Positions 12,380 to 14,285 are shown, counted from the first letter of the stretch. The stretch is 64,000 nt of DNA from an uncultured archaeon (GCA_964608725.1 CAZSPB010000002.1:31234-95233), one strand, 5' to 3'. Program-made: numbers and translations. The notes: a model not told the origin generated them from the letters alone.

Positions 12380-12571
12380 CTACTGTGAAAGCAAAGCATT
12401 TTCTACTTCTTCTTCAGTCATGTTCGCAATGGCATTTTCCATCTCTTCTTCTATAGTAGTATAAGCTATTTCTTCTGGACTTTTAAATTGTGGTGCTGGT
12501 CTTGGTAAAAAGTAAATGGCAATAGATAGTATTATGATCACAACAACAAGGGCTATTATTACTCTTTTCAT
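12380..12571 (-). CDS. Small single-pass membrane protein
   Basis: 63 aa with N-terminal TM helix and acidic tail; co-oriented 8 bp after 12580-13380. Confidence 0.65.
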   Translation of the reverse strand: MKRVIIALVVVIIILSIAIYFLPRPAPQFKSPEEIAYTTIEEEMENAIANMTEEEVENALLSQ

Positions 12572-12579
12572 TTAACCAC

Positions 12580-13380
12580 CTAACTCACTGTTACATTAAC
12601 TTCTGTTTCATTTCCTATTCTTTTGACCTTTATTATCCTCTTTATAACTTTGCATTTTTCTGGATATTTCAAGCAGAAGTTTTCCGCTTTTACTTTCACA
12701 TATCTGCAAGCTAATGAAGTTGGATGTTCTTTGCAATAGTTTTTAATAGCTATTCTACATCTTGAATCATTCAAATGAGTTATACAATATTTCTTTAAAA
12801 TCTCTTTACATCTTACATCTTCAGGATTATTCTGACAATATTGTTCTATTTTTGTTCTACAATTTGGATCTCTTGGATGCTCTCTACAATAATCTGAAAC
12901 TTTTTCTCTTAGTTCAATAGGCCTTATTGGTCTACGAGCTTCAAGTATATAAATGTAAAATGTTTCTTTTTCTAATTGCAAAGTTCCGAACCATATTGTT
13001 GTATCATCTTTAGTCACTGAACTAACATCTAAAGAACCAACTTTTGTATCATTAAGGTATAAATCCCCTGTAACACTTTCATTACCAATTTCTAAATTTT
13101 TTAGTCTATATCTTTCGCCATCAAGGAACAAAACACCTACTGTTAACTCCGTTTCTTCTCCTGCCCATGAAACTCTCACTATTCCAACACCAGCTTTCAC
13201 TAATTTGAAATTCAATGGGTCTTCAGGTGTAATTGCAACACCCCTACCTAAAAAGCCTATGAGTTTTATGTAAGGTTTTGGTAATCCTTGTTGCCCTATT
13301 AAAGGTTGGGCCATTGTTGGTACTGCTATAAGTAAGCTTACCAATCCAACTATTATTTTATTTGGTTTCATTTTCATCAC
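12580..13380 (-). CDS. Secreted protein with a tandem Cys-x8-Cys repeat domain
   Basis: Signal peptide, beta-rich N domain, then about five repeats of mostly 17 aa of the form [YF]C-x8-C. Confidence 0.75.
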   Translation of the reverse strand: MMKMKPNKIIVGLVSLLIAVPTMAQPLIGQQGLPKPYIKLIGFLGRGVAITPEDPLNFKLVKAGVGIVRVSWAGEETELTVGVLFLDGERYRLKNLEIGNESVTGDLYLNDTKVGSLDVSSVTKDDTTIWFGTLQLEKETFYIYILEARRPIRPIELREKVSDYCREHPRDPNCRTKIEQYCQNNPEDVRCKEILKKYCITHLNDSRCRIAIKNYCKEHPTSLACRYVKVKAENFCLKYPEKCKVIKRIIKVKRIGNETEVNVTVS

Positions 13381-13393
13381 AAAAAATAATAAT

Positions 13394-13438
13394 TTGTTTC
13401 ATTGATATAAAATTTTCTTGAAACAATTTGAAACAATT
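13394..13438. promoter_or_regulatory. Candidate operator: tandem TTGAAACAATT repeats plus an inverted copy around a TATA-like box
   Basis: TGAAACAA at 13419-13426 and 13429-13436 (10-bp period); inverted TTGTTTCA at 13394-13401; minus-strand TTTTATATCA at 13403-13412. Confidence 0.6.
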
Positions 13439-14285
13439 ACTTTTTCCAGAAAATTTTATTTGTTCTACCAATTTTCTTTCTTTCTATCAATTTTTTTGTT
13501 TCTAGTTTTTTGCATATTCTTGTCATTTTAGCTCTTGAAAATTTAAGTTCCTTTTCAAGTTTGTTTTGATATGCTACTTTCCTTTTCATCAAAATGTTTA
13601 TCAATTTTTTCTCATCTTCTGAAAAACCTTTTAAAAATTCTTTTCTTACTTTGTGCCTATAATAGTTTGTAATGATTAAAATAAGGAAAATTGAAATTGG
13701 AATGAATAAAAAAATCAATTCCATTTTATACGGGTTATAAAATTGAATTGAAATTGGTATTTCATCTTTCCAATTTTCAAAATTCCATTTTAAGTATATT
13801 CTTTTCCCATCACTTTCTATTTTAACATTATCAGGAGATATCATGTTTCTGTAAATTACAAAACCTTCAGGAAGAGCAATACTTATAGAAAATTTTTCTA
13901 ATGTTTGTGGTGGTTTGAAAATTGTGAAGAACTGAAAAACATTTTCATGAGAAAATATTAAATCTTTTGTTGTAAATGATATGAATAACTTTTTTGTTCC
14001 ATTAGGTATCGTAAAACTTATCTTATTTTCTTCACCTATTTTTTTTATTGTATAATCAAGTTCTTTCAAACTGTTATTTATTTTAAGATTACTTATTTCG
14101 CCTGTAGTAATGTAGCTGAGCTCTGTTTGATTCAAACTTTCGGAAAATGTTATTTCTAGTAGTTCATTTACAATTAAATTTTGAGAGATGCTAAACTCTA
14201 AATTATATTCTTGAATTTCATAAGCTTTTGTTAAATGAGAAAATAATAAAAATGAAATAAATAAGAGTAATATCTTAATACCCAT
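13437..14285 (-). CDS. Membrane-anchored transcriptional regulator-like protein (COG2512/DUF7343 type): signal peptide, extracellular domain, TM helix, C-terminal wHTH
   Basis: C-terminal FSEDEKKLINILMKRK..YQNKLEKELKFSRAKMTRICKKLETKKLIERKKIGRTNKI. Confidence 0.8.
   Translation of the reverse strand: MGIKILLLFISFLLFSHLTKAYEIQEYNLEFSISQNLIVNELLEITFSESLNQTELSYITTGEISNLKINNSLKELDYTIKKIGEENKISFTIPNGTKKLFISFTTKDLIFSHENVFQFFTIFKPPQTLEKFSISIALPEGFVIYRNMISPDNVKIESDGKRIYLKWNFENWKDEIPISIQFYNPYKMELIFLFIPISIFLILIITNYYRHKVRKEFLKGFSEDEKKLINILMKRKVAYQNKLEKELKFSRAKMTRICKKLETKKLIERKKIGRTNKIFWKK

Follow-up and report, generated by a model that had tools for sequence, protein, structure and literature searches.

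A predicted type-I membrane-tethered regulator in Aenigmatarchaeota and the conserved candidate operator associated with its subfamily

Transmembrane transcription regulators (TTRs) are one-component proteins that join a DNA-binding domain to a transmembrane (TM) segment and are presumed to act on DNA from the membrane. A census that predicts 1,384 archaeal TTRs defines no operator and lists only ArnR as characterised among them (Demey et al. 2023, PMC10269533). ArnR and ArnR1 of Sulfolobus acidocaldarius are composed of a helix-turn-helix (HTH) domain at the N-terminus, HAMP-like and cytoplasmic sensor domains and two C-terminal TM helices, and the ArnR boxes, TCGAC-N5-GTCGA, lie at -43 to -84, entirely upstream of the B recognition element (BRE) (PMC6396743). 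Here, we describe a predicted TTR and its candidate DNA target in a stretch of 64,000 nucleotides (nt) from an uncultured archaeon (the window; GCA_964608725.1, CAZSPB010000002.1:31234-95233, or C2:31234-95233). The source genome (848 kb, 31% GC, 42 contigs) belongs to a small symbiont-type archaeon of the Aenigmatarchaeota. Three consecutive minus-strand genes of the window encode a regulator of 282 amino acids (aa), predicted to be a membrane-tethered winged HTH (wHTH) protein, a secreted Cys-repeat protein (open reading frame (ORF) of 266 aa, 12580-13380) and a membrane protein of 63 aa, and the 56-bp gap between the first two (13381-13436) carries an array of three hexamers. Judging from sequence comparison, regulator and array very probably form an undescribed outside-to-gene switch with a predicted DNA target.

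A conserved candidate operator associated exclusively with one regulator subfamily

Read along the coding strand, the gap has the sequence TAA-tt-GTTTCA-aatt-GTTTCA-AGAAAA-TTTTATAT-caa-TGAAAC-aaattattatttttt-GTGATGAAA-ATG, in which we recognise a predicted operator of the layout GTTTCA-N4-GTTTCA-N17-TGAAAC. Hexamer 1 (13429..13434, minus strand, as are all features of the locus given below) lies 2 nt 3' of the regulator stop codon, hexamer 2 (13419..13424) abuts a BRE-like element, and hexamer 3, the inverted copy TGAAAC (13396..13401), stands exactly 17 nt from hexamer 2. Seen on the plus strand, TGAAACAA is present at 13419-13426 and 13429-13436, that is with a 10-bp period, and in inverted form at 13394-13401. 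An earlier note on this DNA, made from the sequence alone, had pointed to the two copies, a TATA-like box and the inverted copy in the gap, and its coordinates and sequence are correct.

The 8-mer as such is not enriched in the window (11 copies, with 7.7 expected), where 3 of the 11 copies fall within 43 bp. The genome scan for the tandem motif that the earlier note had proposed returned a single pair, that of the gap, among 110 copies of the 8-mer in the 848-kb genome, and the expectation for an exact site of three hexamers is 4e-4 per genome. As a tandem duplication could arise by slippage, the decisive test is the comparison among genomes, and conservation in 43 instances with diverged flanks led us to reject both chance and slippage duplication.

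Related loci, retrieved with an alignment of 8 closer sequences as query, are all from metagenome-assembled genomes of Candidatus Aenigmatarchaeota. The regulator-target pair recurs in genomes of other families (regulator identity 48% and 38%), where the gap reads TGTTTCA-N3/4-(T/C)GTTTCA-N17-TGAAAC. At syntenic loci with the same layout, the proteins are only 38-62% identical, and the flanking bases have drifted around hexamers and a TATA box that are retained. The closest relative (L078, 62% identity) has the same order of cobA, regulator, target and small TM protein gene, with hexamers and TATA box unchanged and the intervening and surrounding bases different. The motif is therefore present at orthologous loci, which the earlier note had made the test of its proposal. 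In none of the 43 distinct instances, all from other Aenigmatarchaeota, does the second spacer deviate from 17 nt, and the first measures 4 or 5 nt. Hexamer 1 is kept, with occasional single changes (GTTGCA, GTTCCA), and CGAAAC is a common variant of hexamer 3. Hexamer 2 deviates from GTTTCA once (GTTGCA at L094) in a scan that allowed up to two mismatches over the three hexamers with none individually constrained; the 43-instance list accepted only GTTTCA or GTTGCA at this position. Two loci depart from the common form: in L072, GTTTCA is repeated three times in direct orientation and a clear inverted copy is missing, and at L042 (G209:C1, ~186100), which has a divergent regulator gene, the array is immediately preceded by an additional abutting palindrome, TGAAACGTTTCA.

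Scanned across the class, the exact pattern gives 26 matches in 24 of 371 genomes (16 genera), and the reversed pattern, used as a control, gives none in the 371 genomes. The gene of the regulator subfamily is present in 51 of the 371, always in single copy; in each of the 23 further genomes with the motif, a profile of a 16-sequence alignment identifies exactly one high-scoring subfamily regulator (236-385 bits) and a lower-scoring paralogue. The exact motif is found in 24 of the 51 genomes with the subfamily gene and in none of the 320 without it (Fisher p = 6.6e-24), a statistic that shows selection on the motif and is no proof that this protein binds it, since motif and gene are adjacent and hence co-inherited. 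Most sites (23 of 26) are no more than 650 bp from the regulator gene, mostly 1-6 nt after its stop codon, and two of these regulator-linked sites are in divergent orientation (G209, G222). One site is parted from the regulator gene by a convergent target gene (G214), and two are orphans (G205:C9, G222:C25), whose genomes each have a linked site as well. At loci fetched by protein similarity alone, the motif stands beside the gene in 27 of 29 cases with up to two mismatches, and in a motif-blind count of 6-mers in the 250 nt after 26 distinct subfamily genes, GTTTCA ranks first (24 of 26, versus 4 of 24 in a control stretch). The candidate operator is thus conserved and exclusively associated with this regulator subfamily. 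The subfamily gene is patchy in the class; within the window's own family it is found only in this genome, and its best relatives are in other families, a spread that points to cassette transfer or repeated loss.

What follows the operator differs from locus to locus. In some cases it is a secreted beta-domain protein with the signature GxGxAIS..DP.DF, with or without Cys repeats, in others a secreted DUF5667 protein (Pfam ~1e-19) or a small zinc-ribbon protein (CxxC...CPLCE). Targets change from locus to locus and regulator and operator do not, which argues for an operator that is the regulator's own. This bears on the very unlikely alternative that the array is real and bound by another factor, either a soluble regulator or TFB and TBP reading an extended core promoter, and that it travels with the wHTH gene by adjacency. 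Such linkage would be expected for any sequence in a co-inherited cassette, and in L078/L079 (62% identity) the predicted recognition helix and wing of the regulator are changed (FSKAKISR and GKKKK instead of FSRAKMTR and GRTNK) next to three unchanged hexamers. However, besides the change of targets and the absence of the motif from every one of the 320 genomes without the subfamily gene, the orphan and rearranged sites occur only in genomes that have the gene, and the motif was not found at three homologues of the Cys-repeat gene without an adjacent regulator.

Between hexamers 2 and 3 lie the predicted core elements of a promoter, read from the sequence as a BRE-like purine-rich AGAAAA (13413..13418) and a TATA box, TTTTATAT (13405..13412). 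Together they are close to the archaeal BRE/TATA consensus, and across the 43 instances positions 3-5 of N17 are rich in A or purine and positions 7-14 are rich in T or A in every case. Downstream of hexamer 3, an A/T-rich promoter-proximal stretch (13381..13395) is followed by a Shine-Dalgarno (SD)-like GTGAT (13376..13380), 9 nt before the ATG at 13371. GGTGAT stands at the same place in orthologous loci, in many of them 14-17 nt after hexamer 3. The Cys-repeat ORF opens at a GTG at 13380, and its real start is likely the ATG behind the SD-like element. In 374 upstream regions from the whole genome, TATA-like 8-mers show a sharp maximum at 24-28 nt before the start codon, which makes most mRNAs apparently leaderless, and a minority of genes have GGTGA with a peak at -9. 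Judged by this genome-wide peak, AGAAAA-TTTTATAT sits at the proper distance from the SD-like element and the ATG. From the TATA distance and the position of GGTGAT after hexamer 3, we infer a transcription start at about 13382, which would place hexamers 1, 2 and 3 at about -52 to -47, -42 to -37 and -19 to -14, and the TATA box at about -30 to -23. Hexamers 2 and 3 would then form an inverted pair, 23 bp from centre to centre, at both edges of the expected TBP/TFB site, and the operator would bracket this site in the promoter of the next gene.

Since GTTTCA can pair with TGAAAC and a run of six T residues follows in the window, the inverted hexamers might instead act in RNA, where a hairpin in read-through transcripts would cause termination or attenuation between the two genes. 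We rejected this reading, which is exceedingly unlikely: the gap folds with -5.7 kcal/mol, no better than shuffled sequences (z = -0.14), the T-run is not conserved in orthologous loci, and the gap has no Rfam match. In the 43 instances, moreover, covariation is absent at the bases next to the hexamers and variant hexamers lack compensating changes (GTTGCA with CGAAAC), and the first direct repeat would have no role in a hairpin.

The regulator protein and its paralogue at the S-layer gene

The regulator gene (13437..14285) encodes a predicted type-I single-pass membrane protein, for which we built an AlphaFold (AF2) model from 16 subfamily sequences (predicted local distance difference test (pLDDT) 89.3). 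The protein begins with a signal peptide or anchor (aa 1-21, MGIKILLLFISFLLFSHLTKA; 14223..14285; modelled hydrophobic helix at aa 2-16), followed by a predicted extracellular all-beta sensor domain (aa 22-188; 13722..14222; modelled strands within aa 24-183), to which the target protein shows no similarity. A TM helix (aa 189-209; 13659..13721) comes next, with a Kyte-Doolittle maximum of 2.65 at aa 188-206 and a modelled helix at aa 186-218, and leads over a basic RHKVRK into a predicted cytoplasmic wHTH (aa 219-282; 13440..13631) with the recognition helix SRAKMTRICKKLE and the wing tip GRTN. In the model, the wHTH consists of helices at aa 223-235, 240-247 and 251-263 and a beta hairpin at aa 267-280, with pLDDT above 90 for aa 223-280. 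As the TM segment is followed by positive residues and all three N-x-S/T sequons (N52, N70 and N95) are in the beta domain, the ectodomain is predicted to be outside and the wHTH inside the cell. Pfam, model and hydropathy agree here with the earlier note, which had read the protein as a membrane-tethered wHTH with an ectodomain, one TM helix and a cytoplasmic HTH. Residues S250, R251, K253 and R256 of the recognition helix and G273-N276 of the wing tip are invariant in the 16 proteins that share the operator.

The C-terminus matches Pfam DUF7343 (PF24034, a wHTH) above its gathering threshold (31.2 bits, cutoff 27.6), and MarR, MarR_2 and TrmB (PF01047, PF12802, PF01978) fall below theirs (19.0 vs 24.6, 19.1 vs 27 and 20.6 vs 25.6). 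The paralogue in the same genome passes TrmB (28.8) and MarR_2 (27.3), so the wider family borders on TrmB/MarR. The nearest NCBIfam families of the wHTH are Sta1 (2.7e-5) and Lrs14 (2e-4), both far below cutoffs, and its nearest PDB folds are 6cmv (Lrs14-like) and 4mnu (MarR/SlyA), both at ~0.01. For the whole model, the best Foldseek matches in the PDB are ribophorin I/Ost1 (6s7o_E, 1.5e-7; 6c26_1; 7oci_A; TMq ~0.45), with a match of about equal quality to the N-domain of M1 aminopeptidases. A profile of the regulator collects 196 clusters at 50% identity with E <= 1e-30, 1,132 at 1e-10 and 3,657 at 1e-3; homologues are annotated as 'uncharacterized membrane protein' or 'MarR family transcriptional regulator', and most of them have a precomputed PF24034 assignment.

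Of 61 related genomes, 60 carry the lower-scoring paralogue, which is 32% identical to the regulator in the genome studied here (C1:237933-238778). It lies directly upstream of a putative S-layer gene (882 aa; Pfam S_layer_C, S-layer outer domain, 2.1e-19; locus C1:237646-238778, L021), and a palindrome, GAAACtGTTTC, abuts the BRE/TATA at C1:237798-237821. The pattern AAACWGTTTCT-N5-7-TTWTATA has 14 matches in the 61 genomes, one per genome and all 110-135 nt after the stop codon of the paralogue gene. In this promoter, the BRE-proximal GTTTC has the same register as hexamer 2 (GTTTCt-AGAAAt-TTTTATAA vs GTTTCA-AGAAAA-TTTTATAT), and the site is wholly upstream of the BRE, without a downstream hexamer. 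The family thus appears to read GTTTC half-sites set against the BRE of the following gene. S-layer genes are normally very highly expressed.

Between its promoter and its start codon, the S-layer gene also has a 5' leader of ~140-200 nt with a conserved element that is GC-rich although the genome is AT-rich, TTTTGGCGCG..GCGCATTTTTGGCGCCA..CACCGCGCA (L021, L020, L018, L013, L011, L009). It could be a structured leader RNA of the S-layer mRNA and has no Rfam match.

Proposed mode of action and predicted target genes

We favour, with moderate confidence, a model in which the type-I regulator binds the three hexamers and activates the next gene, with room for a dual mode of action. The beta-sandwich ectodomain would sit outside the cell and the wHTH of ~60 residues against the inner face of the membrane, and oligomerisation through ectodomain and TM helix, dependent on a ligand or on the state of the envelope, would raise the occupancy of the array. 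The wHTH domains would bind the three GTTTCA hexamers directly 3' of their own stop codon, and the BRE-proximal hexamers would help TFB and TBP onto the promoter, which would amount to activation. The earlier note's reading of an activator that recruits TBP and TFB is plausible in this light. Hexamer 3 could then clamp the TBP-bent DNA or limit output at high occupancy; more generally, a factor on hexamers 2 and 3 might act as a clamp on TBP-bent DNA or else keep the DNA straight against TBP. Binding by the wHTH, the promoter positions, the signal perceived by the ectodomain and the direction of regulation are thus all part of the prediction.

Activation is favoured for three reasons. A site abutting the BRE is also found in the S-layer promoter, where strong expression is to be expected and where the site is purely upstream of the BRE; the phased direct repeats that end at the BRE resemble known archaeal upstream activating sites, those of GvpE and Ptr2; and the TATA cores within N17 are poor in GC-richer genomes (TTCTCAT, AATTAGG).

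The activation model has to be held against several observations that speak the other way, beyond the co-inheritance of motif and gene and the altered recognition helix discussed above. The wHTH is only ~10 residues from the membrane, so that the DNA would need to be brought there; the place of hexamer 3, past the TATA box and before the predicted transcription start, is typical of archaeal repressors; and the BRE/TATA of the window, being near consensus, has no obvious need of an activator. Most characterised archaeal regulators with sites downstream of the TATA box (MDR1, Phr, NrpR, LrpA) repress. The serious rival, which we regard as possible but clearly the less probable of the two, is accordingly that the same protein on the same operator is a repressor, which would bind hexamers on both sides of the BRE/TATA, block the recruitment of RNA polymerase or the bending induced by TBP, and be released by an extracellular signal. 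The strictly fixed N17 would fit a protein that occupies both flanks of the TBP/TFB site, and a promoter that is already strong would suit repression. What argues for activation instead is the S-layer site, which lacks any downstream hexamer, together with the weak TATA cores of the GC-richer genomes and the likeness of the two direct repeats to the GvpE and Ptr2 sites.

The predicted target gene of the window (12580..13371) encodes a secreted protein whose model (pLDDT 80.9) has a beta domain of 8 strands (aa 34-144) and, after it, a helical domain of disulfide (Cys) repeats. It belongs to no Pfam family and has no significant fold match in the PDB, where only weak lipocalin- or fHbp-like barrels are found (E ~0.03). 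Located 8 nt 3' of it, the gene of the 63-aa small single-pass membrane protein (12380..12571) is probably co-transcribed with it. A homologous third gene stands a few bases 3' of the Cys-repeat gene in L078 (2293-2493), L080 (2630-2848) and L081 (4281-4505), and the acidic C-terminus of the encoded protein is conserved in the window and these three loci (...A..N.T.EEIENALL.Q). Regulator, target and small membrane protein genes thus form a three-gene cassette. In several GC-richer Aenigmatarchaeota (L039, L041, L042, L053, L003), the same operator precedes small cytoplasmic zinc-ribbon-like proteins (WDC..C....CPLCE) and not secreted ones; these targets could represent a downstream signalling or regulatory step.

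The site in the gap is the sole full operator of this genome, in which we found no convincing further members of a regulon; the other GTTTCA-N17-TGAAAC (C20:958) is inside an ORF. Autoregulation through the same operator was considered and rejected: upstream of 16 regulator genes there are TATA boxes of their own and no GTTTCA arrays, except where the target is divergent (G209, G222). Elsewhere in the genome, TGAAAC-N4-TGAAAC on the minus strand (C5:18921-18936) is closely followed by a TATA-like TTATATAAAAT and then by a gene for a 93-aa HTH-like protein (C5:18614-18895, minus strand). This direct repeat could be due to chance or be the site of another family member.

The S-layer sister system suggests that, through this family, envelope genes are expressed according to the state of the envelope. 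A far wider proposal, which is speculative and on balance quite unlikely, would be that Aenigmatarchaeota, and perhaps many archaea, run their envelope genes through one family of type-I tethered wHTH proteins, with an ectodomain of common descent with ribophorin I/Ost1. The S-layer would then be served by one paralogue and the one described here secreted Cys-repeat and DUF5667 proteins, each would read GTTTC in a fixed register to the BRE, and the N17 inverted pair would clamp the TBP-bent TATA box, giving activation at the membrane without described precedent.

DPANN archaea have tiny genomes with few regulators, and almost nothing is known of how they sense their surroundings or hosts. For the present system, the prediction is complete in cis and in trans, with one protein, an operator of 18 specified nt in fixed geometry to the BRE/TATA and a defined set of secreted or surface targets. 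Although the organism is uncultured, a domain of 60 residues and a DNA fragment of 60 bp suffice for testing it. An operator that brackets the TBP/TFB site would also be a good case for studying how a membrane-bound factor activates or represses archaeal transcription.

Relation to known regulators

Our literature searches returned no publication on the architecture of this family (type I, beta-sandwich ectodomain, C-terminal minimal wHTH) or on its operator, and nothing relevant on COG2512, DUF7343/PF24034, ribophorin combined with HTH, or regulators of Aenigmarchaeota. With regard to the ectodomain, the closest resemblance is to ribophorin I/Ost1 of the eukaryotic oligosaccharyltransferase, in which a beta-sandwich on the luminal or extracellular side is likewise followed by one TM helix and a tail in the cytosol. 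In contrast to ribophorin, however, the cytosolic part is a predicted wHTH, and there is no match to Pfam Ribophorin_I; the likeness is at the level of the fold, with homology unproven. For the DNA-binding domain, the best sequence matches are Lrs14, Sta1, TrmB and MarR, all below family cutoffs. These proteins are soluble dimers with flanking dimerisation helices, whereas the domain described here is a bare wHTH of ~60 residues on a TM helix.

The earlier note had called the system ToxR-like, a description that is apt as an analogy and fails as a family assignment. Like ToxR, CadC and TcpP, the regulator is predicted to have a single TM helix, an extracytoplasmic sensor and a wHTH near the membrane, and direct repeats about one helical turn apart are located by the core promoter. 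In ToxR, CadC and TcpP, though, the wHTH is N-terminal and of the OmpR/PhoB type, the sensor is C-terminal and the partner is the bacterial sigma-70 machinery, whereas the protein described here has the opposite order and a wHTH of the DUF7343/TrmB/MarR/Lrs14 kind, and TBP and TFB are the expected partners. Trans_reg_C, the OmpR/PhoB-type wHTH, has no match in the window protein at E <= 0.1, and in place of the C-terminal periplasmic sensor of ToxR/CadC the ectodomain is N-terminal (aa 22-188). The resemblance to ToxR/CadC is therefore one of analogy and not of homology. With ArnR/ArnR1, the regulator shares the archaeal setting and the membrane-bound one-component design, and ArnR also has paired boxes upstream of the promoter of a cell-surface structure, which it activates (PMC6396743). 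It differs from them in its predicted extracellular sensor, in its domain order and in an operator that would bracket the BRE/TATA. By domain order, type of wHTH and operator placement, the regulator is hence a member of neither the ToxR/CadC nor the ArnR family. It does have both a predicted DNA-binding domain and at least one predicted TM region, the two properties by which TTRs are defined operationally (Demey et al. 2023), and on these predictions it is a TTR, with control of transcription from the membrane suggested by the conserved operator next to it. Regulator and operator, the latter predicted from sequence conservation, together represent a new variant of transmembrane transcription regulators.

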